Source of the DNA: Saprospiraceae bacterium UBA2329
GTDB lineage: Bacteria; Bacteroidota; Bacteroidia; Chitinophagales; Saprospiraceae
DNA length: 64,000 bases
Direction of reading: 5' to 3'
NCBI GenBank assembly: GCA_002344975.1
Contig: DDUV01000057.1
Location: 1-64,000, forward strand
The notes under the pieces were generated by a model, which was given only the letters and a program-made list of their open reading frames with translations, had not been told where the DNA came from and did not search any database. How positions within the stretch are numbered: position 1 is the stretch's first letter; each line of letters opens with the position of its first letter. This document shows positions 4,978 to 42,273 of this stretch, in pieces. The position numbers and the translations under genes are program-made.

Positions 4978-5054
<77 letters not shown>

Positions 5055-5282
5055 CTTATAAAGCCTTGTAAATCTTTGATTTGCGAGGCTTTTTTATTTG
5101 TATTTGATGCTCGGTTCTCGCCAGCGCAGGAGAACCGGGTGTGAAGGCTCAATTAGCGCGTCCCACAATCTTGGTTTTTACCAACTTTCCGTAAGTATGC
5201 TTTTCAAACTCTTCAAGGTTGCTGTCGGCATTACCATGACAAACCACTAAAGTTCCCTTCCTGCCTTCCGTAACGAGCAAGC

Positions 5283-6065
5283 CTACAAAGCTTTTATATT
5301 TTCTGCACTTGCCGTGCCCTGATAGTATTTGCCATTCTCCAAATAGAGCACAGATACCCCCGGGCGCTCCATACCCGTCAATTTTTGAAGCTCGTTTTCG
5401 ACCAATCCGGTTTCTGATATTCCTGTCAGATCATCCATAGTGGTCCATTCTATAACGGCTGCATCAGGAGATTGAGTAGGGTATTCGCCATCTTTAGTTT
5501 GAATTGATCGGTTTCTACCTTCAAACTTAGCAAGCCGAAACTCTTCCATACTGTCTTCCTGGCTGCCAATATATGTGCTCATAAAACTTTTCCTTATCAA
5601 TGGATCGAAACTTTCTTCAAGCTGATCGAAACAAAAGGCCTTGATGTAATAGACCCTGTCATTGTAGCTAATTGCCATTGCATACCTGATCGTGTTTGTC
5701 ATTTTATCATGCACCACAGAAAAGAGACCGTTATCCTCCCCATCATAATTTACCCGGCTCAGCTCCAGCAAAACGCTCTTCTTTTCTCTCAAGGCGCTCG
5801 GAGTAATACGGGCTTTTATTTCTTCCAATGACCTCATACTCATCGTTACAGAAATAGATGAAAGTGCATTCGTTGTTTGGTACCCGTCAAACGAGCGCGC
5901 TTTTTCATATCCATTTGGTACTACCATCCATACCCCCCTGCCCAAATGAACACTTTGATCTGTTTTTTGAGGCGAGATACGGAGGTTGCCTTCTTTGTAA
6001 TTCGAACACGAGCCGGCAAGTATCAAAACGATAAGCACGGATAAGCAAAGTCGTAAGTCATTCAT
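5283..6065 (-). CDS. Hypothetical lipoprotein
   Basis: N-terminus MNDLRLCLSVLIVLILAGSCS carries a lipobox-like Cys. No recognisable catalytic motif. Confidence 0.5.
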   Translation of the reverse strand: MNDLRLCLSVLIVLILAGSCSNYKEGNLRISPQKTDQSVHLGRGVWMVVPNGYEKARSFDGYQTTNALSSISVTMSMRSLEEIKARITPSALREKKSVLLELSRVNYDGEDNGLFSVVHDKMTNTIRYAMAISYNDRVYYIKAFCFDQLEESFDPLIRKSFMSTYIGSQEDSMEEFRLAKFEGRNRSIQTKDGEYPTQSPDAAVIEWTTMDDLTGISETGLVENELQKLTGMERPGVSVLYLENGKYYQGTASAENIKAL

Positions 6066-6193
6066 AAAAACTGTTTTTTAGTTGCCGATAAATTCTTGGC
6101 AGGGTGAAAGCGCTCACTTCATCAGCAACTCATCCACGTTCACGCCGGGATTCTGTATCTTGGTCATTTACACGGGGCCCATTTGCTGCGGGC

Positions 6194-6230
6194 GAAGTCA
6201 GGAGGTAACAGGAAGTTACCGCCTGACTTC
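6194..6230. repeat. 37-bp near-perfect palindromic element (copy 1) GAAGTCAGGAGGTAAC-AGGAA-GTTACCGCCTGACTTC
   Basis: About 16-bp inverted arms. An almost identical copy (1 nt different) lies at 12446-12482. It sits just downstream of the flotillin gene stop on the minus strand. Confidence 0.7.
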
Positions 6231-6237
6231 CAGCACG

Positions 6238-7806
6238 CTAACTCCCTGCTTGCTCTTCGCTTGCAGGCGCATCGGCAGCTTTGGGGTTGCCGAGGTATTT
6301 GGGCAGTTCCATGCCCGCCATGTTGAACAGGTCGTTGAGCGGCGGCACCGATTTATACAGCCCCGATACAAAGCGGGAGGTAGAATTGCCCTCGCCGTCG
6401 GAGTGGTTGCCACCGTCCCACACGGTCACTTTGTCTATCTTGATGTTCTTGATAGCATCCACCTGCGTTTTCACTAAGTCTTCGATCTTGTCGGCAATCA
6501 GCATCAGCACGGCGTCGCGGGTATTGCCGCCGGCCGCCTGCACGATTTTGTCAAAACCCTCGGCCTGCTTGCTGAGTATCTCATACAAACCGCGGGCCTC
6601 GGCTTCCTGCTTGAGGAAGATGGCATCGGCCTCGCCCTTGGCCAAGCGGCGGGTTTGTTCGGCCTGCGCTTCGGCTTCGATTTCCATTTTGCGGCGCTGT
6701 ATTTCGGCCTGCACGATGATGTCTGCTTCTTTAGTGGCGCGTTCGCGGGCGGCGCGAGCCTCTTCGGCCTTTTTCTCTGCCAGATAAGCGTCTTCCAATG
6801 CGTTGGCCGTTTGGATTTTTTCAGAAGAAACGGCCGTTTTGTTGGTCTCGGCTTCGCGGATACGGCGGGCCGCTTCCGATTCTGCAATGGTGATTTTGGC
6901 TAAGTTTTCACCCTCGATGGCCTTGGCGCGGGCCGCCGCCTCGCCCACCTGCGCTTCAGACATTGCCTCCGATACCTTGATGCGCTCCTGCATGGCGGCC
7001 TCTGCCTCTTTGATGCGCAGTTCGGCCTGCGAATTGGCGATGGTCACGCGGCTTTGGTTTTCACCATCCACGGCCTGGGCATTGGCAGCCGCCTCGCCCA
7101 CTTTGGCAAAGGCTTCTGCTTCCGATACCTTGATGCGCTGGTCTTTTTTGGCGTTGGCTTCACCGATGGAGCCGTCGCGGGTTTTTTCTGCTACGCTCAT
7201 GCGGGCGTCGTTCACAGCTTTTGCGGCAGCCTCTTTGCCCAATGCTTCTATGTAGCCCGATTCATCCTGAATGTCGGTGATGTTCACGTTGATGAGCGCG
7301 AGGCCGATTTTTCTGAGTTCGGCGCCCACGTTGGTAGAGACATTGGAGAGGAATTTGTCGCGGTCGGAGTTGATTTCCTCAATATCCATGGTGGCTACCA
7401 CGAGGCGGAGCTGACCAAAAATGATGTCTTTGGCAATGTCGCGGATTTCTTCCATAGACTTGCCCAGCAGGCGTTCGGCGGCGTTTTGCATCACGCCTTC
7501 TTCGTTGGAAATGGCCACAGTAAAGCGCGAGGGCACGTCCACGCGGATGTTTTGCTTACTCAGTGCGCGCCGCAGGTCCACATCTATGGAAATAGGGGAG
7601 AGGTCTAAGTATTCGTAGTCCTGAATGACCGGCCATACGAATGCCGCTCCGCCCGCCAGACATTTGGCCGAGCCGGAACCCGTGCGCCCGTAAATGACGA
7701 GCACTTTGTCGGAAGGGCATCGCCGATAGCGGGAAATAACAAAAGCGAGAGTCATAAAAACCAGTAAAACCAGTCCTACGACGAGGATAATCAGAGAAGT
7801 TCCCAT
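6238..7806 (-). CDS. yqiK: Flotillin-like SPFH/band-7 protein (YqiK-type)
   Basis: N-terminal TM (MGTSLIILVVGLVLLVFMTLAFVI), then an SPFH domain, then a long Ala/Glu-rich coiled coil with repeated EAEA…IKVSEA motifs. Start moved to the internal ATG; the track ORF starts further upstream. Confidence 0.75.
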   Translation of the reverse strand: MGTSLIILVVGLVLLVFMTLAFVISRYRRCPSDKVLVIYGRTGSGSAKCLAGGAAFVWPVIQDYEYLDLSPISIDVDLRRALSKQNIRVDVPSRFTVAISNEEGVMQNAAERLLGKSMEEIRDIAKDIIFGQLRLVVATMDIEEINSDRDKFLSNVSTNVGAELRKIGLALINVNITDIQDESGYIEALGKEAAAKAVNDARMSVAEKTRDGSIGEANAKKDQRIKVSEAEAFAKVGEAAANAQAVDGENQSRVTIANSQAELRIKEAEAAMQERIKVSEAMSEAQVGEAAARAKAIEGENLAKITIAESEAARRIREAETNKTAVSSEKIQTANALEDAYLAEKKAEEARAARERATKEADIIVQAEIQRRKMEIEAEAQAEQTRRLAKGEADAIFLKQEAEARGLYEILSKQAEGFDKIVQAAGGNTRDAVLMLIADKIEDLVKTQVDAIKNIKIDKVTVWDGGNHSDGEGNSTSRFVSGLYKSVPPLNDLFNMAGMELPKYLGNPKAADAPASEEQAGS

Positions 7807-7835
7807 AGGATTGAAGCGTTTTATGATGATGTAAT

Positions 7836-8429
7836 TCAGTCTTGCCGGGTCACCAACAAAATATTGTCGGGCAGCACGTCGGTCACGAGAATTTTCGTGC
7901 CGGTGGGGATGTAGGGGCCGTCCGTTACGGCTTCCCATTCGCGGAGTACGTTGCGGGTTTTTACGGTGACGCGGCCTATACCGCTGCGCCCGCCGGGTAT
8001 GGCGAGATATACATCGCCGGCTTGATAGATGGCTTCATGCGCCGTCACGTTGTCTTCCTGGCCCAGCCGTGAAAACCAGAAAATGAGGTAAGCCACCAGA
8101 AACATGGCGATGCCGCCCATGAGCAGGCCCAGCAACAGCGCCAGCCACAGGCTGATACCCGCGCCGAGCATGAGTACGCCCGTCCAGCCGAGGAAAGCAA
8201 AAAACGCGATGATACTGCGCACCGAAAAAACCGAAAAAGAGTGGTCGTGGTCTAATCCGCCGTCATGGCTCAGGTCTCCGGCGTCGGAGTCTCCGTCAAA
8301 ATCCAACCCCGTGAGTGTCAGAATAAACTGTATGAGCATCAGCACCGTAAAGACCACGGCAATGATCCAGAAAATCTGTTCCGGCCTTTGCATGGCCATC
8401 CACCATTCGCTCACCGTCAGTAGTATCAT
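7836..8429 (-). CDS. yqiJ: NfeD-like membrane protein (YqiJ-type), partner of flotillin
   Basis: Several TM helices and a C-terminal OB-fold-like region. Lies 27 bp upstream of the flotillin gene on the same strand, which is the conserved yqiJK arrangement. Confidence 0.55.
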   Translation of the reverse strand: MILLTVSEWWMAMQRPEQIFWIIAVVFTVLMLIQFILTLTGLDFDGDSDAGDLSHDGGLDHDHSFSVFSVRSIIAFFAFLGWTGVLMLGAGISLWLALLLGLLMGGIAMFLVAYLIFWFSRLGQEDNVTAHEAIYQAGDVYLAIPGGRSGIGRVTVKTRNVLREWEAVTDGPYIPTGTKILVTDVLPDNILLVTRQD

Positions 8430-8745
8430 CTTTGAGGGTTGAAAAGCCTTTGTATTATGGCCCGCAAAATGTAAAATGGTCTTGCTGTCTCGTGTATTGA
8501 TTCGATGAAAGGGGGTATTTTATCGGCGAAATTGTAAATCTGTTTTGGGAAATTCATCATGCGGCGGTACAAAGCGGGCTTTTGTTTTTCATTGTCCCCG
8601 GCTCGAAAATAAAAGCAATACGCTCATTTTTTGTCCCCTGTCGGACATACGAAGCCATAAAATTTTGGCTGTTCCCACACATTTGCTTAACATTGTGCCC
8701 TTGATTGGTAAACCTATTGCCAGAGTAGATTTAAATAAATGATGC

Positions 8746-11700
8746 ATGATGCGAAACTTACTCTTAATCAGCTTTTTACTGTTGTCGGCTGTGGCCGCTG
8801 TAGCGCAAACGTCGCTGGGTGGAACCATGACGGACGGTGACTCCAAAGAGCCGGTCATCGGCGGTACGGTACTCCTGTTCAAAAACGGGGTACAAATTAC
8901 AGGTACTACTACCGATTTCGACGGCACTTACAGCATTACCAACCTTGATCCGGGCACCTACGATGTAGAGGCCAGCTATCTGGGCTACCAGAGCCAGCGG
9001 GTTGAAAAGGTGGTCATTTTTGCCGGCAAGGCCAACAAATTGGACTTTGTCATGTCTGCCGGAGTACTCCTCACCACCGTTGAGGTCAAAACCTACCGGG
9101 TGCCTTTGGTGGAGCAGGACAATACCACGCAGGGCCAAACCATCACCAGCGAGCAAATCCGCAACCTGCCCACGCGCAACATCAACGCGCTGGCAGCCAC
9201 CACGGCGGGTCTGGCTTCCGCCGATGAAGGTGGGGCCATCACGGTGCGCGGTTCCCGCTCAGATGCCACCAATTACTATGTGGACGGTATCCGCATTCAG
9301 GGCAACCTCATTCCTGAGTCGGAAATTGACCAAATGCAGGTCATTACCGGCGGTATGGAAGCCCAGTATGGCGACGTGACGGGCGGTATCATTTCCATTA
9401 CCACCAAAGGCCCTTCACAGAAGTTTTCGGGCGGTGTGGAACTGGAAACTTCCAAATACTTCGACGCTTATGCCAACAGCTTGGTGGGTATCAACCTCAC
9501 CGGTCCGATCTGGAAAAACAAAAAGACCGGGGAGTCCATTCTCGGCTATCGCTTCTCCGGCCGCTGGACGCATCAGGTGGATGACCGTCCGCCTGGAATC
9601 CCCGTGTACAATGTAACGGAGGAGAATCTCAAGGCACTCGAAGCCGACCCTATCCTCCGCATCAATAACAGCCCCTTTGTGGCCGCCGACTTTATGAAAG
9701 CCGATGATGTGGATGCGCTCAAAGCGCGCCCCTATGAAACGCTGCGCCGTTACGACGTGACCGCCAAAATTGACGCACGCCTCAGCAAGCAGATTGACAT
9801 TTCGTTTACGGGGGCATTTACCAACACGGAAAACCAGTTTACGCCCGGTGGCTGGCGCGTGTTCAATAGTCACAACAACCCTACGTCTTTCGCCGGCACG
9901 CGTCGCGGCTCCGTTCGCCTGCGCCACCGTTTGGGCGGCGCTGCGGGTGGCGACGATAAAAAATCGGTTATTCAGAATGCTTCGTATTCTTTGCAATTCG
10001 GCTACGAGCAAGAGTTTTACGAAGACTACGATCCGCGCCACGGCCAAAACCATTTTGCTTATGGCCATGTAGGCAATTACGACATACAATGGGTGCCCAC
10101 GTTTGAAGCAATGGTGGATCAGACAACTGGAGAAGTTTCGTTTGTCCACTCGGATAACCGTCAGGTGCTGCGCGGCTATTCCAATGCCGGGTCTTCCAAT
10201 CCGGTATTGTCCAATTACAACAACGCATTGGGCCTTGACTTTTCGGAGGGCCTGAACGGGCAGATTCCCAATGTCATCATTGCCGGTGTAAACGACGGCA
10301 TTGAGAACATTCTCCGCCGGGAAGCCTTCATTGCGCCCAACGGCACCATTTCCAACCAGTTCACTTCTTCCTGGAACTTCCACACCAATGTAGGCACGGT
10401 ATTCAATCGCGTACTCAAGTCGGAAGATGATGTAACGACCTTCAACGTCAATGCTTCGTTCGACCTCGTTCCGAAAGGTGGCGCAGGTAAAGGCCGCCAC
10501 AACATCCAGTTCGGCGCCTGGTATGAGCAGCGCACCAACCGCCAGCACAACGTAGCGCCCCGCGGTTTGTGGGATGTGGCCCGCCAATTGGCCAACAACC
10601 ATATTCTCGGTATTCCGGTGGACGCAGACGGCAACCCGACTTCTCCTGTGATCGGCACCACGCAAGTGACCAACCCGGTGACGGGTGAAGAAGTGACCGT
10701 TGACCTTCACGATGTACAAATCGTGGAAAACGCCGAAGCCGCATTTTACCGCCGCCTGCGCAGTTCTTTGGGTATCACCAACCTGGGGCAATATGTAAAT
10801 GTGGACGGCCTCAATCCGAGCCAGATGAGCCTCAATATGTTCTCTGCCAAAGAATTGAATGACCAGAACATCTTGGGCTACTATGGTTATGACTACCTCG
10901 GCGGAAAATTTGACGGCACCTTTGAAGATTTCTTCACAGCTACCGATGCTGATGGTATCCGCACTTTCCCGGTAGCGCCCAACCGCCCGATTTACCAGGC
11001 ATTCTACATTCAGGACAAGTTCACTTTCCGCGACATCATCTTCCGCCTCGGTTTGCGCGTTGACCGCTACGACGCCAATACCAAGGTGCTCAAAGACAAT
11101 TATTCGCTGTACGAAATCATGGGCGCAGGTGAGTTTCATGATCGTTTTGGTGGTGATCGTCCCGGCAATATCGGCGACGACTTCAAAGTATATACCGCCG
11201 GCGCCGGCAGCGACAATGTGCAAGCCTATCGCGCCGGTGACCAATGGTACCTGCCCAACGGCACGCCCGTGAACAACGTGGCCCTGGCCATTCCTTCCGG
11301 CGTGGTAACGCCCAAATATCAGGATGCCCGCATTGACGACAACATCAACTTCATTCGCGCCCGCGATTTCGATCCGAACGTGAGCTTCAAGGACTACGAA
11401 GTGCAAACCAACTTCATGCCGCGTCTCGCTTTCTCGTTCCCGATTTCCGAAGATGCGAACTTCTTCGCCCACTACGACGTGTTGGTGCAGCGCCCGCCGA
11501 CCAACACCATCGCCACAGCGCTTGACTATTTCTACTTCTTCGACCGCAGCGGCATCCGCAACAACCCCAACCTCAAGCCCGAGCGTACCATTGACTATGA
11601 GGTGGGTTTCAAACAAAAGCTGACCAATGCTTCGGCGCTCACCATTACGGCATATTACAAAGAAATGCGCGACATGATTTCTTCGCGGATTTTCTTCCCC

Positions 11701-12438
11701 GTGCCCATCATCAACCAATACGAAACCTACGACAACCTCGACTTCGGTACGGTGAAAGGTTTCTCTTTTGTGTTCGATCAGCGCCGTTCGGGCAATTTCT
11801 CCATGAATGCCAACTATACGCTGCAATTTGCCGACGGTACCGGCTCCGACGCCAACTCTCAGCGCGCCATTTCCAGCCGCGGTGTGTTGCGCACCCTGTT
11901 CCCGCTCAATTTTGACGAACGTCACCGTTTGGTACTCAGTGCCGACTATCGCTACGACAGCGGCAAACGCTACACCGGTCCGCGTTTGTTCGGTATGGAC
12001 ATCTTCGCCGATGCAGGCGTCAACTTCCAGGCCATTGCTGTTTCCGGCCGTCCTTATACCCGTAAGTTTCTGCCTACGGAGTTAGGCGGCGAGGGTACCA
12101 TCGGCGCCATCAACGGCGCGCGCAACCCTTGGAATTTTACGATAAACTTGCGCGTGGACAAGAGCTTCAATATTGGGGATAAAATGTCGGTGAATGTTTA
12201 TTGCCGCGTTTCCAACCTCTTGGATCGCCGCAACATCATTGGCGTATATCCTGCTACCGGCTCGGCTACCGATGACGGCTTCATTCGTTCGGCTTTCGGG
12301 CAAAACCAAATTACGAGCGTACAAAATTCATTGCGCGAAGTGGATGCTTATCTGGCATCTTACCAGTGGGCCTTGCTCAATCCGGGCAATTTCAGCCTGC
12401 CACGCCGTATTTTTGTAGGCGCTATTTTTGATTTCTAA
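8746..12438 (+). CDS. TonB-dependent outer-membrane receptor with N-terminal carboxypeptidase-regulatory-like domain
   Basis: Signal peptide, a CarbopepD_reg-like region (VIGGTVLLFKNGVQITGTTTDFDGTYSITNLDPGTYDV), a plug (TITSEQIRNLPTRNINALAATTAGL…VRGSRSDATNYYVDGIRIQG) and a long beta-barrel ending in aromatic Phe (…GAIFDF). Confidence 0.8.
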   Translation: MMRNLLLISFLLLSAVAAVAQTSLGGTMTDGDSKEPVIGGTVLLFKNGVQITGTTTDFDGTYSITNLDPGTYDVEASYLGYQSQRVEKVVIFAGKANKLDFVMSAGVLLTTVEVKTYRVPLVEQDNTTQGQTITSEQIRNLPTRNINALAATTAGLASADEGGAITVRGSRSDATNYYVDGIRIQGNLIPESEIDQMQVITGGMEAQYGDVTGGIISITTKGPSQKFSGGVELETSKYFDAYANSLVGINLTGPIWKNKKTGESILGYRFSGRWTHQVDDRPPGIPVYNVTEENLKALEADPILRINNSPFVAADFMKADDVDALKARPYETLRRYDVTAKIDARLSKQIDISFTGAFTNTENQFTPGGWRVFNSHNNPTSFAGTRRGSVRLRHRLGGAAGGDDKKSVIQNASYSLQFGYEQEFYEDYDPRHGQNHFAYGHVGNYDIQWVPTFEAMVDQTTGEVSFVHSDNRQVLRGYSNAGSSNPVLSNYNNALGLDFSEGLNGQIPNVIIAGVNDGIENILRREAFIAPNGTISNQFTSSWNFHTNVGTVFNRVLKSEDDVTTFNVNASFDLVPKGGAGKGRHNIQFGAWYEQRTNRQHNVAPRGLWDVARQLANNHILGIPVDADGNPTSPVIGTTQVTNPVTGEEVTVDLHDVQIVENAEAAFYRRLRSSLGITNLGQYVNVDGLNPSQMSLNMFSAKELNDQNILGYYGYDYLGGKFDGTFEDFFTATDADGIRTFPVAPNRPIYQAFYIQDKFTFRDIIFRLGLRVDRYDANTKVLKDNYSLYEIMGAGEFHDRFGGDRPGNIGDDFKVYTAGAGSDNVQAYRAGDQWYLPNGTPVNNVALAIPSGVVTPKYQDARIDDNINFIRARDFDPNVSFKDYEVQTNFMPRLAFSFPISEDANFFAHYDVLVQRPPTNTIATALDYFYFFDRSGIRNNPNLKPERTIDYEVGFKQKLTNASALTITAYYKEMRDMISSRIFFPVPIINQYETYDNLDFGTVKGFSFVFDQRRSGNFSMNANYTLQFADGTGSDANSQRAISSRGVLRTLFPLNFDERHRLVLSADYRYDSGKRYTGPRLFGMDIFADAGVNFQAIAVSGRPYTRKFLPTELGGEGTIGAINGARNPWNFTINLRVDKSFNIGDKMSVNVYCRVSNLLDRRNIIGVYPATGSATDDGFIRSAFGQNQITSVQNSLREVDAYLASYQWALLNPGNFSLPRRIFVGAIFDF

Positions 12439-12445
12439 TCGTATT

Positions 12446-12501
12446 GAAGTCAGGAGGTAACCGGAAGTTACCGCCTGACTTCACTCACTCTGACTTTTTT
12501 T
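12446..12501 (+). terminator. Intrinsic terminator built from 37-bp palindromic element (copy 2) plus T-run
   Basis: GAAGTCAGGAGGTAACCGGAAGTTACCGCCTGACTTC followed by …GACTTTTTTTT, directly after the TonB-dependent receptor gene stop. Confidence 0.65.
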
Positions 12502-12544
12502 TGAATTGACTTTCAAAATTGTTGACTTTTAAACTTTTTCTAAT

Positions 12545-15500
12545 ATGCTCAACAGAAAACTTTGGTTTTGGAACACGGCTCTGGGCCTGTTGATGACCTT
12601 GCCGGTCATAGCCAATGTGAATCCAAACTTACAGCGGAGCAGAGAAACACCGGCTAAACCGGGCAACAACGTTTCTTTCCGATTCAACTGCGACAAAGCC
12701 CTTGCGCAAACCGATCAGGCCATCAACAACGTACGTGCGCGTTTGCTCACCGGCGGTGATGTATGGTGGGATGCAGCTCCGCAAAACGCCAACGGCCGGT
12801 ATGTGGTGCCCAAAGTGCCACCCGGCGTGCCGGAAGTTTCTTCTTTGTTTGCCGGCGCTGTATGGCTCGGCGGTTTGGACCCTGCCGGCAACCTGAAAGT
12901 AGCCGCGCAGACGTATGGTTCTTCTTCCGGAGACAAAGACTTCTGGCCTGGCCCATTAGACCCCGAAACCGGCGGCACCGATCAAACTGTATGCTCCAAG
13001 TGGGACCGCTTTTTCACTGTGAAAGGCAGTAACATTGAGTTGCACATCAAAAATTTCAAAAAAGCGCAGGCAGACGGCGTCCCCTACGATCCCGATCTCA
13101 TTCCTTTGGATGTGAAGGGCTGGCCCGGCCGCGGCAACCCGTTCTTTCAGGAAATCAACCGTTTTGCATTGCCCAATACGCGCCAGGGTTTGGCCGGCTT
13201 CTGGGATGAAGACGGCGATATGGATTACAACCCGGAATTTGGCGACTATCCCATCATCGAAATCCGGGGCTGCGAAGACAGCCCGCAATATCCGGATGAG
13301 ATGACCTTCTGGATTTACAACGACAACGGCAACATCCACTCGGAATCTCGCGGCGACGCCATCCAGATGGAAGTGCAGGTGCAGGCTTTTGCTTATGCTA
13401 CCAACAACGAACTCAACGACATGACCTTCCAGCGCTACAAGCTCATCAACCGCGCTATTGAGGATATTGACAGTACTTTCTTTGCCATGTGGTCCGACCC
13501 CGACTTGGGTTGCTACACCGACGACTATGTGGGCTGCGATACTTCCCGGAGTTTGGCTTATGTATATAACATTGACGCCGCCGATGGACAAACCGGATGT
13601 ACCTGCCCGCAAGGGGTGAATACTTATTGTGAAAACATTCCTATTCTGGGCATTGACTATTTCCGGGGCCCCTTGCGCTACATTGAGGATGCCCAAGGAC
13701 ATGTCATTGACACAGTAGAAATAGGCATGTCTTCGTTCACATACTTCAACAACGGCGGTGTGACGCCCACGCCCGCGCCGGGCACAACCGACCCGAACAA
13801 CGCGCAGGAATACTACAACTATCTGACAGGTTCCTGGCGCGACGGCTCGCCGTTTACCTATGGCGGCGATGCTTATCAGGATGGCCCGCCGATCAAGTAC
13901 GCGTTCACGGAAGCGCCCGACAATCAAACAGGCTGGAGCATGTGTACGCAGGCCCTGCCCGCCGGCGACCGCCGTACCATTCAGGCTTCGGGGCCGTTCA
14001 AATTGCGTCCCGGCGACATCAACGAACTCATCATTGGCGTGGTATGGGTGCCCGATCAGCGTTACCCTTGTCCCAGCATCAAGAAGTTGCAGGAAGCCGA
14101 CGACATCGCACAAGACTTGTTCGACGCTTGTTTCAGATTGCCCAACTGCCCGGATGCACCCGATGTGGACTTCGTGGAATTGGATCGCGAGATCATAGCC
14201 ATTTTTACCAATGACCAGAATTCCTCCAACAACTTCGGTGAAAGCTATGCACAGGCAGGTTTGGGGATTCCGCAAGAATTTGCAGACTCGCTGTTTGTAT
14301 TCGAGGGCTACAAGCTGTTTCAGGTTTCCCGCCCGGATGTCAAGTTGGATGCTTCTACTCTGGATGACCCATCTAAAGTGCGTCTCATCTATCAGGTGGA
14401 CGTGAAAAACGGCATCAATCGCATCTTCAACTGGAGAACTTTGAGCGATGCATTGGATACGCCGACGGCTGAAGAATACTTCACGCCGGAGTTGCAGGTG
14501 GACGGCGCCGACCTCGGCATACGCCATACTTTCCGCATTACGGAAGACCAATTTGCCGTGGGTGATCGCCGTTTGATCAATCACAAACTGTACTATTTCA
14601 TTGCGGTAGCGTATGCTCACAATGAATACTTGCCTTTCGATCCGGTACAGGTATTGGGCCAAAAAGCACCCTACTGTGAAGGCCGTCGCAACATCGGCCC
14701 CAACGGTGACGGCTTGCCCTACGCTGCTGTGCCGCGCCCCATCACCGACCGCCGCCTCAATGCCCAATACGGCGACGGCGTGGTCATTACCCGTGTGGAT
14801 GGAGCTGGTACCGGCGAAAACTTCTTAGATATTTCCAGCGAGACCCGCGCACTCATTGAGGCGGATGTCAAGGCGGATGCTCAACTCGGCGCTTTCCGCG
14901 GCGAGATCACTTATACGGCTGGTCGCGGTCCTATCGAGGTGAAGGTATTCAACCCCTTGGATGTAAAAGACGGCGACTTTGAACTGCGTTTTGTGGACGG
15001 CAATATGAATGACAACGTATTGGCAACAAACGCGCGTTGGGAACTGCGTCGTACGGATATTCCCAACGAACCGCTCATTGCATCGGAAACGACCATCGAG
15101 AAACTCAATGAGCAGATCATCAAGAAATATGGATTCAGTGTCACCATTGGTCAGACAGATGTGCCCGGCACCCGACGCGACCGCTCCAACGGCGTGTTGG
15201 GTTATGAAGAGCAATATGCTCGTACAGGCGCCAACCGTTGGCTCACAGGCATAAAAGACGACGTTTTGCCGGGCTTTAACCTCTTGGACCAAGTCGTATT
15301 CAACTATGTGCTGACTGGTACCGGCGAGCGGGATGAGATTTACGATCCCACACAGGCATTCACCAACATGGGGCCGGGTTACTTTGTACCGTTCTATTTG
15401 ACCAACTGGTCGCGTGTTGGAGAAGGAGGGCCGGTATTCATCTCCCCGAGCTGGTTTGAGTCTTCCGGTATGAACATCGTGCGCACGCAGTCCGGGCTTC

Positions 15501-24824: not shown

Positions 24825-25898
24825 ATGATCACCATCTCCAAACTGTCTATATTCAGCTTTTTATACAAAACACTGCTTTACTGCTCATTGTGTAGCCTCG
24901 CCGGCTGCGCCGTGCTACCGAGGGGCGATGCCGCCGATGCTGTGCCGCCCGTTCCGCCCGACTATTCCAACCCGGCTTACTGGGCTGCCCTGCCCGATAA
25001 AGCCGACCCCGCCGACCGAACGCCCGCCGGCCTCTCCAACATGCAGGCAAGCGCCCCCGCCGATGTGTTTTTTCTGCATCCTACCACCTACACCGGCGAC
25101 CGCGGCCACAACCAATGGAATGGCCCGGTGAACGACGAGCGCCTGAACCGCAAAACCGACGAAAGTACTATTTTGTATCAGGCCAGCCTGTTCAACGGCG
25201 TGGGACGGGTCTTCGCTCCGCGCTACAGGCAGGCGCATTTGCACTCATATTATGCGCGCAATGCCGCCGAAAAAGCAGCCGCCGAAAAGGCATTTGAATT
25301 GGCCTGGCTCGACGTGAAAGCTGCATTTGAATACTATCTGGCCCACCATCATCAGGGGCGGCCTATCATCATCGCCTCGCACAGTCAGGGTACTACGCAT
25401 GCCAAACGTCTGATGCGCGAGTTCTTCGACGGCAAGCCCTTGCAAGAACGGCTCGTGGCGGCCTACCTCGTGGGCATTCCCGTAGAAAAAGATTATTTGA
25501 AGTCCATTCCGCCCTGCCAGACGCCCGACGATACCGGCTGTTATTGCACCTGGCGCAGCTTTCGCAAAGGGCATATTCCCAAATGGCACAAAGACGGCAG
25601 CCTCATCGCCGTTACCAACCCGCTCACTTGGACGACGGGCGAGGCGTACGCTCCTGCCGACCTCAACGAGGGCGGGGTTTTATACAATTTCGACAAGATT
25701 TTACCCAAGCTGGCAGATGCCCAAATCCACGACGGACTGCTGTGGGTAACCAAACCGCGCTTTCCGGGCAGCGTCTTCTTCACGAGGCCCAACTACCATG
25801 TAGCCGATTATAACTTCTACTACCTCAATGTGCGCAACAATGCCATGCGGCGCGTGGAGGCGTTTCGGCAGGCGGGACAGACAGGGGTGAGTAGGTGA
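24825..25898 (+). CDS. DUF3089-like alpha/beta-hydrolase-fold lipoprotein
   Basis: Lipoprotein signal (…LYCSLCSLAGC) and a nucleophile-elbow-like IIIASHSQGT. Stop codon TGA lies inside the GGGTGAGT repeat. Confidence 0.5.
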   Translation: MITISKLSIFSFLYKTLLYCSLCSLAGCAVLPRGDAADAVPPVPPDYSNPAYWAALPDKADPADRTPAGLSNMQASAPADVFFLHPTTYTGDRGHNQWNGPVNDERLNRKTDESTILYQASLFNGVGRVFAPRYRQAHLHSYYARNAAEKAAAEKAFELAWLDVKAAFEYYLAHHHQGRPIIIASHSQGTTHAKRLMREFFDGKPLQERLVAAYLVGIPVEKDYLKSIPPCQTPDDTGCYCTWRSFRKGHIPKWHKDGSLIAVTNPLTWTTGEAYAPADLNEGGVLYNFDKILPKLADAQIHDGLLWVTKPRFPGSVFFTRPNYHVADYNFYYLNVRNNAMRRVEAFRQAGQTGVSR

Positions 25899-25945
25899 GG
25901 GGTGAGTGGGTGAGGGGTGAGTGGTGAGTGGGTGAGTGGGTGAGG
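25884..25945 (+). repeat. GGGTGAGT octamer tandem repeat (about 7 units), locus A
   Basis: GGGGTGAGTAGGTGAGGGGTGAGTGGGTGAGGGGTGAGTGGTGAGTGGGTGAGTGGGTGAGG directly at the 3' end of CDS 24825-25898. The gene's stop codon TGA is part of the repeat. Confidence 0.9.
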
Positions 25946-26051
25946 AGCGAGATGAAAAAAGTGTCGGCTGTTTTCGTCCGGAGACTTATGTTGCTGAAAA
26001 ATTGCTGTTACGTTTCTAACTTGCCGCTTTTTACGGAAAACAAAAAACAAC

Positions 26052-32274: not shown

Positions 32275-32357
32275 CCACTCACCCTTCATCCCTCACCCAC
32301 TCACCCATTCACCCATTCACCCACTACCCACTCACCCACTCACCCACTCACCCATTC
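32275..32357 (-). repeat. GGGTGAGT-type tandem repeat (about 10 units incl. GGGTGAAT variants), locus B, oriented with minus-strand gene
   Basis: Plus strand reads CACTCACCC…; the reverse complement is GAATGGGTGAGTGGGTGAGTGGGTGAGTGGGTAGTGGGTGAATGGGTGAATGGGTGAGTGGGTGAGGGATGAAGGGTGAGTG. It supplies the TGA stop of CDS 32348-33448. Confidence 0.9.
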
Positions 32358-33448
32358 CTCTTACCCGCTTCAATACCATGCTTGGCCGGGTCTTTCAGCC
32401 TGTCCCGAAGGGTAGAAAGCGCCACCACATCGGCTTGAGTCAGTACCTTGAATTTTGCATTCAGGATAGCGTCCAGTTCCGCGCCGGCCTCGGCTGCTGT
32501 ATGCCAGAAGCTCGTTTCGGCCTGAGTCAGATCAGATACGATGCGGGTTTTCATGGTTTGGAGCGGCTGTTCAAAGAGTGCGTCAGGACTGCTTTGCGCA
32601 TTGATTTTGCTCAGCAAATCTTTACAAACGCCGCTGCCGAGCATACAATGCCCGCCGTAATCCCAAGTCTGAATCTGCCAGGCCGGGAAGAAATACTCGA
32701 TGCTGTCGTCGGGGAAGGCGGCAATTTGGAGGTCCATAAAAATGTCATCCTGTACGCCTTTGGTTTTTTTGGAAAGAGCCAGCCACTGCCGATAATCCAA
32801 AAAGAGGTAGTACGCGGTCCCCTCGGCCACCAATTGCGGCTGGAAGCCCGTGAACAGCTCCGCCAGCCAGAACATGTCGGGCATATCCTCGGCAGAAGTA
32901 GGCGGAATGCGCCGTTGCAGCACCTCGTTGATGGTGTCGCGCAGGGCCGTACTTTGTTCCAGCAGGCGGCTCAGGTCGGCTTCGTTGCGGGTAGCGGCCC
33001 AGTTGCGGCGGTGTTGGTTGATGCTCTCCACGAGCGGCTGTCCGAGCATGGCTGTGGCGCGTTTTTGCAGGAGGGCGCGGGTGGCGGGCGAGTTTTGGGA
33101 GGCGTCAAAAATGAGTCCTCCGCCATACACCCAGCCCGTTTGGCCGGAGGAGGTTTTCACCTTGATCCAGGGTTCGTCAAAAGTGATACCGCGCAAAGTG
33201 ACCCGCGTGGTGAAATCGCTCACTTCGCCCAGGTCTTCCAGTTTGGCGCCTTTGGGCAGGGTGGCCACGATGACGCCTTTTTCGCCGGGCGTTTCGCGCA
33301 TGCGGAGGTCGGACACGGCCGTTTCAAACTGCACCGGCCCTTTGTCGGTCATGGTTTCGGTAGAGGCGGCCTGTTCTGCGCCGGCATTTTTGGGGCGACA
33401 GCCGAACAGCAGGGCGGCAGGTATCAGCAATAGAAGTAAGGTACGCAT
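32348..33448 (-). CDS. Hypothetical lipoprotein with SH3b-like domain
   Basis: MRTLLLLLIPAALLFGC lipobox; an SH3-like stretch (MRETPGEKGVIVATLPKGAKLEDLGEV). Confidence 0.5.
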   Translation of the reverse strand: MRTLLLLLIPAALLFGCRPKNAGAEQAASTETMTDKGPVQFETAVSDLRMRETPGEKGVIVATLPKGAKLEDLGEVSDFTTRVTLRGITFDEPWIKVKTSSGQTGWVYGGGLIFDASQNSPATRALLQKRATAMLGQPLVESINQHRRNWAATRNEADLSRLLEQSTALRDTINEVLQRRIPPTSAEDMPDMFWLAELFTGFQPQLVAEGTAYYLFLDYRQWLALSKKTKGVQDDIFMDLQIAAFPDDSIEYFFPAWQIQTWDYGGHCMLGSGVCKDLLSKINAQSSPDALFEQPLQTMKTRIVSDLTQAETSFWHTAAEAGAELDAILNAKFKVLTQADVVALSTLRDRLKDPAKHGIEAGKRNG

Positions 33449-36219: not shown

Positions 36220-37623
36220 ATGGCAAAAAAAACTTTCATAGCGGAGCAGGTGCGCATCACCGGCATAGCAGAAAAAGGGCGGGGCGTAGGCCGAGACGCT
36301 GAGGGACGCGTATTTTTTGTACCCGATACCGTGCCCGGCGATGTAGTGAATGTGCTGACCCTGCGCAAGAAAAAGGGATTTTTTGAAGGCGTGGTGCATG
36401 CCGTGCTGGAAAGCTCGCCGGAGCGTGTGCAGCCCTTTTGCCGGCATTTCGACCTCTGCGGCGGATGCAGTTGGCAGCACTTAGACTATGCCGCCCAATT
36501 GCACCACAAACAACTGATGGTAGAAAACGCCCTGTTGCGCATCGGTAAATTGGAAGTAGAAGATTTTCAGCCCATCACAGGCGCTGATCCCAATGTATAT
36601 TACCGAAATAAATTAGAGTTTTCCTTCTCCAACCGCCGCTGGCTCACCAAAGAGGAAGTTGACTCTGAGGTGACCAACCTGGAGGATGTACTGGGATTTC
36701 ACAAATCGGGAGCCTTCGACAAAGCCATTGATATTGAACACTGCTGGCTGCAACCCGATCCTTCCAACGCCATCCGTCTGGCCGCCAAACGTATCGCTGT
36801 AGCGCAGGGTCTTGCCTTCTGGGATGCCCGCGACAACAAGGGTTTTGTGCGCAATCTCATGCTGCGCGTGGCCACTACTGGGCAGGTCATGGCGCTGATG
36901 AGTTTTTCCGAAAATCGCAAAAAAGCCATCTCCGCTTTTTTGGATGCATTGCAGGAGGCCTGCCCGCAGATCACCTCGCTGTACTATTGCATCAATCACA
37001 AGGTCAATGATTTTATGTTCGACCTCGACATGATCCTGTATCGCGGCGAGCCTGCTATCGAGGAGCAGTTGGGCCATGTACGGTGCCGCATCGGGCCGAA
37101 ATCTTTTTTCCAGACCAACACCAGGCAGGCTAAGGTACTGTTCGATACGGCTGCCGAGTTTGCCGGGCTGCAAGGCCACGAAAACGTGTATGATCTCTAT
37201 ACCGGAATCGGCAGTATAGCGTTGTATCTGGCGGGGCGTTGCCGACAGGTGACGGGCATTGAGGAAATAGCCGCCGCCATTGACGATGCGCGCGACAACG
37301 CGGCCCTCAACGGCATTGATAATTGCACTTTTTACGCCGGAGACGTGAAGGACATGCTCACGCCGGAGTTTGCTGAAAAGCATGGCAAACCCGATGTGCT
37401 CATCACCGATCCGCCGCGGGCGGGCATGCACCCCAAAGTGGTGGACATCCTGCTGGAATTGGCCGCGCCGCGCATCGTGTATGTGAGTTGCAATGCCGCC
37501 ACCCAGGCCCGCGATCTGCAATTGCTCTCGGCAAAATACCGCGTGCTCAAAGTTCGCCCGGTGGACATGTTTCCGCATACGCACCATGTGGAGAGCGTGG
37601 CACTGCTGGAGCTTCAGGGGTGA
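36220..37623 (+). CDS. rlmD: 23S rRNA (uracil-C5)-methyltransferase RlmD/RumA family (TRAM + [4Fe-4S] + class I MTase)
   Basis: TRAM-like N-terminus, the Cys cluster CRHFDLCGGCSWQHLDY, and a C-terminal MTase with DPPRAGM. Stop TGA is embedded in the GGGTGAGT repeat. Confidence 0.85.
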   Translation: MAKKTFIAEQVRITGIAEKGRGVGRDAEGRVFFVPDTVPGDVVNVLTLRKKKGFFEGVVHAVLESSPERVQPFCRHFDLCGGCSWQHLDYAAQLHHKQLMVENALLRIGKLEVEDFQPITGADPNVYYRNKLEFSFSNRRWLTKEEVDSEVTNLEDVLGFHKSGAFDKAIDIEHCWLQPDPSNAIRLAAKRIAVAQGLAFWDARDNKGFVRNLMLRVATTGQVMALMSFSENRKKAISAFLDALQEACPQITSLYYCINHKVNDFMFDLDMILYRGEPAIEEQLGHVRCRIGPKSFFQTNTRQAKVLFDTAAEFAGLQGHENVYDLYTGIGSIALYLAGRCRQVTGIEEIAAAIDDARDNAALNGIDNCTFYAGDVKDMLTPEFAEKHGKPDVLITDPPRAGMHPKVVDILLELAAPRIVYVSCNAATQARDLQLLSAKYRVLKVRPVDMFPHTHHVESVALLELQG

Positions 37624-37677
37624 GTGGGTGAGGGGTGAGTGGGTGAAGGGTGAGTATGTGAGTGGTGAGCAACCCGA
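37617..37677 (+). repeat. GGGTGAGT octamer tandem repeat, locus C
   Basis: CAGGGGTGAGTGGGTGAGGGGTGAGTGGGTGAAGGGTGAGTATGTGAGTGGTGAGC immediately at the rlmD 3' end. Confidence 0.9.
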
Positions 37678-41938: not shown

Positions 41939-42273
41939 TAAGAGTGTGCTGATGCGGCAGTCGAGTAGCCGCCATTTTTCAGGGGTGCAAGTTAGGGAAA
42001 AAGTAGATTTTGGATTGGATGCCTGTGATTTTCGCATGTCAGGCCAATAGAGTCGGCTTGTTTTTTGACGCTAATTTTTTATGGTTTTTATGATTTTCGC
42101 TGCTCGGAGAGGGCGTCGCGAGCGGGTTTTACATTTATCACTTGATATTTTTCGGTTGGGCGGTTTCCTTCCACTCTTCTGTATAGTCCGCTAAAGGTAG
42201 AACCGGGCGGGGAAAATTTGACAAATCTCGAAGATTTGTCAAATTGGACACTGTCCGAAAACTGCGCCTCACT

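Follow-up and report, generated by a model that had tools for sequence, protein, structure and literature searches.

Two 37-bp palindromes, almost identical and each lying just past the stop codon of a gene, occur in a 64,000-nt stretch of DNA from Saprospiraceae bacterium UBA2329 (GenBank assembly GCA_002344975.1, contig DDUV01000057.1, positions 1 to 64,000 of the forward strand; this whole stretch is called the window below), and they raise the question of whether they are terminators of the genes beside them or members of a dispersed repeat family. We consider it likely that they belong to a family of short, non-coding repeats that form hairpins, a family confined to the Saprospiraceae as far as our scans reach and similar to repetitive extragenic palindromes (REPs), bacterial interspersed mosaic elements (BIMEs) and REP doublets forming hairpins (REPINs). 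The two copies are listed here; the type and the covariance model R1 are described below.

6194 to 6230, plus strand: palindromic copy 1, asymmetric, type A, loop AGGAA (R1 score 60.3 bits, E 1.4e-14)
12446 to 12482, plus strand: palindromic copy 2, type A, loop CGGAA (R1 score 60.6 bits, E 1.1e-14)

Both copies read GAAGTCAGGAGGTAAC(A/C)GGAAGTTACCGCCTGACTTC, the sole difference being loop base 17, which is A in copy 1 and C in copy 2; the two palindromes that an earlier reading of the letters alone (the sequence-only reading) had placed at these positions, one loop base apart, are thus confirmed. Its arms of about 16 bp stand as 16-nt arms, but they form 15 pairs only, with 9 bp, an A.G mismatch and then 6 bp enclosing a loop of 5 nt. 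No match to the 37-mer was found in 100 dinucleotide-preserving shuffles, with up to three mismatches permitted. The RNA folding energy of 66-74-nt stretches around each copy, on either strand, was −25 to −32 kcal/mol (z −4.4 to −5.2), and the DNA folding energy of the 37-mers alone was −13.5 to −14.7 kcal/mol. The similarity has no convincing extension beyond the palindrome, with 8 of 13 bases equal in the right flank and none in the left. When hairpins with a stem of 11 bp or longer were counted over the whole 64 kb, there were three (0-2 in shuffles), namely both copies and an unrelated one at 42215-42245, and no third family copy was found in the window by this count, by a half-site search, by a type-B pattern or by the unfiltered covariance model. 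The hairpin at 42215-42245, which is not of the palindrome family, has a perfect 14-bp stem, AATTTGACAAATCT-CGA-AGATTTGTCAAATT. A scan of the whole window at the Rfam gathering thresholds returned five tRNAs and nothing else, and permissive Rfam scans around both copies returned nothing credible, a hit to VrrA at E 4.8 being noise. A coding role was also considered and rejected, as the KSGGNRKLPPDF frame has no open stretch of at least 80 codons across either copy; the loop difference would be synonymous (AGG/CGG) if read in that frame. The long open reading frame (ORF) at 6082-6477, which crosses copy 1 in another frame, is antisense to the flotillin gene described below and is probably spurious.

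Seen by itself, the window, with two copies only, 6.2 kb apart and in the same orientation, would fit a duplication on the spot, or gene conversion from one spacer to the other, without any wider family. This explanation is refuted by related copies at unrelated loci in other Saprospiraceae contigs, at least 12 of which carry them within unrelated flanks, and we give it almost no credence. A strict core pattern, GTCAGGNGGTAACN{3,7}GTTACCNCCTGAC (a 24-base core), was run against one genome per species for 185,579 prokaryotic species, a collection that does not include the source genome, and it matched four genomes (L001-L004), all Saprospiraceae metagenome-assembled genomes, with one match each. 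A looser scan of metagenomes gave 36 loci, eight of which (L014, L017, L022, L025 (the same as L030), L028, L032, L033 and L040) were accepted as family because they share the outer AAGT...ACTT arms, which lay outside the search pattern; the other hits were unrelated hairpins that had only CAGGNGGTAAC in common and lacked these arms. Two pattern scans of viral contigs, for types A and B, gave no matches. The covariance model R1, built from 17 copies and later applied to the window and the retrieved loci, added copies that did not fit the patterns: three in L033, a sixth in L028, both orthologues in L041 and a degenerate one in L051, the variant copies recovered in L028 and L033 being of type B. 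Public genomes, metagenomes and the covariance model together give about 25 copies at about 16 independent, unrelated sites, and every match with a named organism comes from the Saprospiraceae. Copies lie after stop codons, between convergent genes, between divergent genes, in alternating clusters and in frame in four genes; that in L040, at first taken to lie within an ORF, is intergenic, the ORF being antisense to a real PKD/Por_Secre_tail gene. The dispersed palindromic family proposed from the letters alone is therefore backed by loci outside the window, by BIME-like clusters and by one clean insertion polymorphism, both described below.

Across the family, the unit is about 35-37 bp long with a stem of 12-17 bp, and three forms can be distinguished.

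Type A (the form in the window): C-G-AAGTCAGG-A-GGTAAC-C(G/C)GAA-GTTACC-G-CCTGAC
Type B: C-C-AAGTGAGG-A-GCTAAC-C(C/G)GAA-GTTAGC-G-CCTCAC
Symmetric form: AAGTCAGG(A/C)GGTAACTT-N-AAGTTACC(T/G)CCTGACTT

Two compensatory pair swaps separate type B from type A. Over 22 copies, the pair at positions 10-36 was CG in 16 and GC in six, and that at positions 16-30 was GC in 17 and CG in five, with neither pair unpaired in any copy; the covariation score of 0.165 compares with 0.057 in shuffles (none of 500 as high) and with at most 0.061 for slid partners. In the symmetric form, a pair (A-T or C-G) takes the place of the mismatch, the loop-proximal bases are paired as well, and seven copies are perfect palindromes of 33-36 nt with a centre of 0-3 nt. 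These perfect palindromes, together with half-sites that change symmetrically, as expected for a site co-evolving with a dimer, would suit a dyad-symmetric site in duplex DNA to which a dimeric protein binds, be it a regulator, a recombinase or a nucleoid-associated protein. However, the arms, at 16-17 nt, greatly exceed the usual length of operators, the copies lie in unrelated coding regions and past stop codons with no common gene function, and their tight alternating clusters look BIME-like rather than operator-like. Moreover, types A and B keep three asymmetric features that would be superfluous for a symmetric dimer: the A.G mismatch, the loop N-(G/C)-GAA (C(G/C)GAA in type A) and an unpaired 5' C-[G/C]-AAG. 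We therefore regard a dimer site as improbable. Of the 15 asymmetric copies, 13 have C-[G/C]-AAG as their 5' foot, and GTAG or GTGG occurs in no copy; in most copies outside the window the foot motif has no complementary 3' partner; neither CGTC nor GACG was found at either end of the copies. Its layout is that of the REP 'foot' motif, with a sequence that is neither GT[AG]G nor CGTC. From the conserved mismatch, the asymmetric loop and the unpaired foot, we infer that one strand is recognized as a hairpin, rather than the duplex as a symmetric site.

At L028 740-962, five units follow one another as B+ A- B+ A- B+, with linkers that alternate between 2-3 nt and 14-19 nt, and at L033 9573-9715 three units, B+ A- B+, occupy the spacer between divergent TIR-STAND and acyl-CoA dehydrogenase genes. 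Adjoining inverted units are able to pair jointly into a longer hairpin, and the alternating arrangement is that described for BIMEs and for REP dimers or REPINs (PMC3733652). The window itself has no clusters, both of its copies being singletons.

Four copies lie in frame within genes, and one of these provides the clean insertion polymorphism.

L003: in-frame copy in an adenylate-cyclase/AAA16/TPR protein
L004: in-frame copy in an OstA/LptD_N-like protein
L032: in-frame copy in a PF01555 DNA methyltransferase
L025: in-frame copy in a GT2 glycosyltransferase

Three of the four read (K)SGGNxKLPPD(L/Y), and that in L025 reads GQAVTSGYLLT; the third frame has a TAA. The L003 protein carries a 14-amino-acid insertion, DVKSGGNLKLPPDL, which is missing from all 15 homologues, one of which (L049) is 82% identical. 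The empty site in L049 runs ...GGCGAC/AAGCCT..., the stroke marking the junction, and the filled site in L003 runs ...GGCGAC-GTGAAGTCAGGAGGTAACTTAAAGTTACCTCCTGACTTGGAC-AAGCCC..., so that the gain is 42 nt, including a perfect palindrome of 35 nt, with GAC on both sides. This GAC repeat, a single case, would fit a 3-bp target duplication as well as microhomology; in the letters themselves, the GAC/AAG of the empty site echoes the ends of the element (...GAC and AAG...). The methyltransferase copy is common to L032 and the 78%-identical L051 and is missing from 20 other homologues, and its insertion boundaries are not definable because it lies in a length-variable loop. We infer that the family is, or was, mobile.

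An insertion of this kind might also be produced by a minimal MITE (a miniature transposable element with inverted repeats), whose arms would be two 16-nt terminal inverted repeats (TIRs) of a DDE-type insertion sequence that moves by cut-and-paste and duplicates 3 bp of its target. In length the arms fall within the TIR range, the resolved L003 insertion has its GAC flanks, and the L004 copy, again judged from the letters themselves, is flanked by GCC in the same geometry. The other copies, however, have no consistent direct repeat around them, so that these two cases are the candidates for the target-site duplications for which the sequence-only reading had suggested looking. Described MITEs are 70-300 bp long (PMC3733652), with TIRs of 15-30 bp and an internal non-coding segment, and the 37-bp unit of the window is far below this; family units measure 35-42 nt and their arms are 1-6 nt apart. 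Conservation is highest in the inner stem and the outermost bases vary, which is the opposite of TIR elements, and a parent insertion sequence with such ends was not seen. A MITE origin thus appears quite unlikely.

Locus L004 also contains three more palindromes of 33-37 nt with other sequences, at 1483-1515, 2196-2232 and 2254-2286, two of them perfect and one with a single mismatch. They have a centre of 1-3 nt within ...ACTT-N-AAGT... or ...AGTT-N-AACT..., and one of them shares the OstA-like ORF with the family copy and, being in frame there, encodes DSPGDFKSPGEL. This suggests that the L004 genome holds several palindrome families with a common geometry, and the similar ...TT-N-AA... centre may point to a common way of generating or recognizing the hairpin tip.

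The history of the window copies can be followed in one close relative, the Logan contig L041, whose flotillin is 97% identical to that of the window, which is syntenic with about 4-17 kb of the window and which has the element at both sites. At site 1 (L041 11577-11613), the same insertion is present with three point differences and is inherited. At site 2 (L041 5326-5360), the copy is inverted, carries a compensatory C-G to G-C swap and has different immediate flanks, and this site has been remodelled since the window and L041 lineages split. The element is absent from L045 and L046 (95% and 92% flotillin identity), in which the downstream DNA is not alignable, and from L047 and L048 (74-75% identity), which are not syntenic; in L047, the gene downstream of flotillin is not homologous to that of the window.

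The position of both window copies at gene ends nevertheless calls for the terminator explanation to be weighed, for which the following features of the neighbourhood are needed.

5283 to 6065, minus strand: ORF next to copy 1, which sits upstream of it
6238 to 7938, minus strand: Band_7/SPFH (flotillin) gene (Pfam PF01145, E 2.8e-27), its 3' end abutting copy 1
8746 to 12438, plus strand: TonB-dependent-receptor-like gene of 1230 amino acids (CarboxypepD_reg, Plug and OMP beta-barrel), its 3' end abutting copy 2
12495 to 12502, plus strand: T8 run, beginning 12 nt past the stem of copy 2, outside the element and not conserved
ATG at 12545, plus strand: ORF of 1382 amino acids downstream of copy 2, which ends 62 nt before this ATG

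Copy 1 is separated from the flotillin stop codon (6238-6240, minus strand) by 7 nt, rather than the 8 bp given in the sequence-only reading, and the TAA (12436-12438) of the TonB-dependent-receptor-like ORF is followed, 7 nt on, by copy 2. Copy 1 is antisense to its two neighbours, both of them minus-strand genes. The copies share the plus strand, but the genes around copy 2 are plus-strand genes, and the copies are thus opposite in orientation relative to local transcription.

The two hairpins could be dedicated Rho-independent terminators, or 3'-end stabilizers, selected at gene ends, with their shared sequence reflecting reuse of a good terminator module. The spacing of 7 nt past both stop codons, the position, 7-120 nt after stops, of the relatives in L002, L014 and L040 and of the L028 cluster, the strength of the RNA hairpin and the T8 run downstream of copy 2 all fit this explanation, and a stable hairpin a few nucleotides past a stop codon is indeed what the palindromes have in common with Rho-independent terminators. 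Against it, a consensus terminator scan of the window called neither copy, and copy 1 has no T-run beside it on either strand. An intrinsic terminator is marked by a GC-rich stem with a U-tract within 0-2 nt at a gene 3' end, an arrangement that neither window copy has. The T8 run that led the sequence-only reading to take copy 2 as an obvious terminator does exist, but it is 12 nt away from the stem, and at the equivalent position L041 has GCCG and A8 in place of the 12-nt spacer and T8, with the element inverted; hairpin and T-run are therefore not conserved as a pair. The source organism does use the classical form of terminator, since a textbook example, with a 15-bp stem followed at once by TTTTATTTG, lies at 5060-5092, directly after the tRNA gene at 4978-5051. 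Other members of the family are found in the divergent promoter region of L033, upstream of genes (L028 1685 and L022) and inside four ORFs, and these positions do not support, in the form given, the further suggestion that the family is reused as terminators. The palindromes thus differ from Rho-independent terminators in having no adjacent U-tract, in their varied orientation and position, extending into genes and promoter regions, and in a sequence that is kept across unrelated loci, and we consider it unlikely that termination or 3'-end stabilization is what they were selected for.

Some further observations concern the surroundings of the copies. The listed flotillin ORF has 566 amino acids, whereas all close homologues have 470-523 amino acids and cover 92% of it, and its start is therefore probably annotated too far upstream, the true start being internal. 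A block, GTTGACTTTTAAA(C/T)(T/A)TTTCTAAT, directly before the ATG of the 1382-amino-acid ORF is kept in the window (12503-12544) and in L041 (5285-5310, reverse strand), unlike the DNA adjoining copy 2, which is not conserved between the two; in the window, TTGACTTT is present twice in tandem. The block probably serves the downstream ORF as promoter or leader. The 16-mer GAATCCCGGCGCGAGC occurs exactly at L041 11654-11670 and L033 6269-6285, and with two differences at about 6137-6153 of the window (minus strand). Copy 1 has it about 40 nt downstream, in the window and in L041, and a type-B copy in L033 has it 5 nt downstream; it may be a second module or a chance occurrence. Elsewhere in the window, G-rich tandem repeats of 8/15 nt (GGGTGAGTGGGTGAG...) lie at 25868-25951 (plus strand), 32277-32365 (complementary strand) and 37601-37669 (plus strand), in all three places at or just beyond gene 3' ends, and recur in a related metagenome contig (L033 11634-11672). 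They form a second dispersed repeat and could adopt G-quadruplexes.

The preferred reading, a REP-like repeat family, can be compared in more detail with the systems already described. Like the REPs, BIMEs and REPINs of E. coli and Pseudomonas, the Saprospiraceae element is an imperfect palindrome of 20-40 bp with a stem mismatch, and most copies follow closely on an ORF; copies stand singly, as inverted dimers or in alternating clusters of two types with alternating linker lengths, the subfamilies differ by compensatory stem changes, and there is a 5' foot motif not needed for pairing. It differs in the low copy density seen so far, in the quarter of its independent sites that lie in ORFs and in having one subfamily of perfect palindromes. 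Rickettsia palindromic elements (RPEs) are roughly 100-150 bp long, and the Saprospiraceae unit, at 35-42 nt, differs from them in this. With the CGTC REPs and the RPEs it has in common that these are palindromic repeats with no dedicated transposase known, and the RPEs likewise enter functional genes in frame, adding a peptide. Intragenic copies, occasional in the present family, are known in REPs and RPEs as well, and CGTC repeats, which have a CGTC tag at one end, a stem of 8-9 bp and a loop of 4-5 nt, have been reported in Bacteroidetes (PMC3733652); the stems here, in contrast, are of 12-17 bp. The structures flanking genes of subclass 2.6 of the tyrosine transposases associated with REPs (RAYTs), described by Quentin et al. 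(2018; PMC6006769), resemble the present element in belonging to Bacteroidetes, in lacking GT[AG]G and in having copies elsewhere in the genome; they differ, by their description rather than by sequence comparison, in being weaker hairpins that flank the tnpA-REP gene. The element fails the tests for both GTAG and CGTC tags, by which the two described REP superfamilies are defined, is far too short for a MITE and falls outside the definition of an intrinsic terminator, and we have therefore classed it as a tag-less variant of REP-like palindromic repeats, apparently undescribed for the Saprospiraceae; our literature search found no description of such elements in this family.

Several points weigh against this assignment. 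The REPs of E. coli and Pseudomonas have a GT[AG]G tag and are mobilized by RAYT/TnpA-REP, a single-copy HUH-Y1 (PF01797) gene with the repeats on its flanks, whereas the Saprospiraceae element has C-[G/C]-AAG and no RAYT was seen flanked by it; the CGTC tag of the CGTC REPs is missing as well. No HUH-Y1 gene was found near any family copy in a scan for the HUH...Y motif over the window and all loci (about 0.4 Mb). The L003/L049 comparison is the single clean empty/filled pair in the whole analysis, and no empty sites were obtained for the window's own copies, the flanks being unalignable in more distant relatives. There was one strict match in each of the four GTDB genomes, and there are two copies in the 64 kb of the window, compared with four in 12.5 kb in L033 and six in 1.7 kb in L028; the family may be low-copy, unlike classical REPs, of which a genome has tens to hundreds of dispersed copies. 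Finally, symmetric covariation in the stem is equally expected for the dyad-symmetric site of a protein dimer.

With regard to the mobilizing enzyme, the sequence-only reading had suggested looking for an associated transposase, and none adjoins a copy within the same 0.4 Mb; no transposase of another kind was noticed beside a family copy, the systematic search being limited to Y1 genes. The sole Y1 gene in the scan, at L032 7624-8097 (DHVH...YIDNQEEHH), is flanked by a different, GTAG-tagged REP. The array of these REPs (GCCCCAGCGGGGC...ATATTGGTAG) around the gene, at L032 7350-8550, is REPtron-like and lies 2.7 kb from the family copy, and the Y motif of the gene, YIDNQEEHH, is of the subclass 1.2 type (PMC6006769). 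RAYT subclasses 2.4 and 2.6 occur in Bacteroidetes, and genes of subclass 2.6 are flanked by atypical structures without GTAG (PMC6006769); these structures may offer a lead on the mobilizing enzyme. A bolder version of the same reading would make the family an undescribed, Saprospiraceae-restricted class of tag-less palindromic mobile elements that form BIME-like clusters, insert repeatedly in frame in unrelated proteins to add (K)SGGNxKLPPD(L/F/Y) and are mobilized by an enzyme outside the known RAYT subclasses, and this we put forward tentatively, as a possibility worth pursuing rather than one that we favour.

On this reading, the element is gained as a discrete block at unrelated sites and in either orientation, stands singly, as inverted doublets or in alternating clusters, and persists in frame where it lies inside a gene. 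Recognition of the hairpin on one strand would resemble the HUH/Y1 (RAYT-type) systems. The window copies, lying in the spacers 3' of the flotillin gene and of the TonB-receptor gene, would be transcribed into a stable hairpin of about −25 kcal/mol that could protect or shape the mRNA 3' ends, although not as a canonical intrinsic terminator. An effect of the window hairpins on transcript 3' ends is plausible but would be secondary and incidental.

REP-like elements are, to our knowledge, well studied in Proteobacteria and barely described in Bacteroidota, and a tag-less family with BIME-like clusters, covariation and an insertion polymorphism provides an entry point to the mobilization of such elements in the latter, for which the clean in-frame insertion in L003 is a useful handle. 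For the annotation of these genomes, it means that strong hairpins beside stop codons should not automatically be called terminators, and that a 12-14-amino-acid 'KSGGNxKLPPD' segment in a Saprospiraceae protein is to be read as the mark of an element insertion and not as a protein motif.

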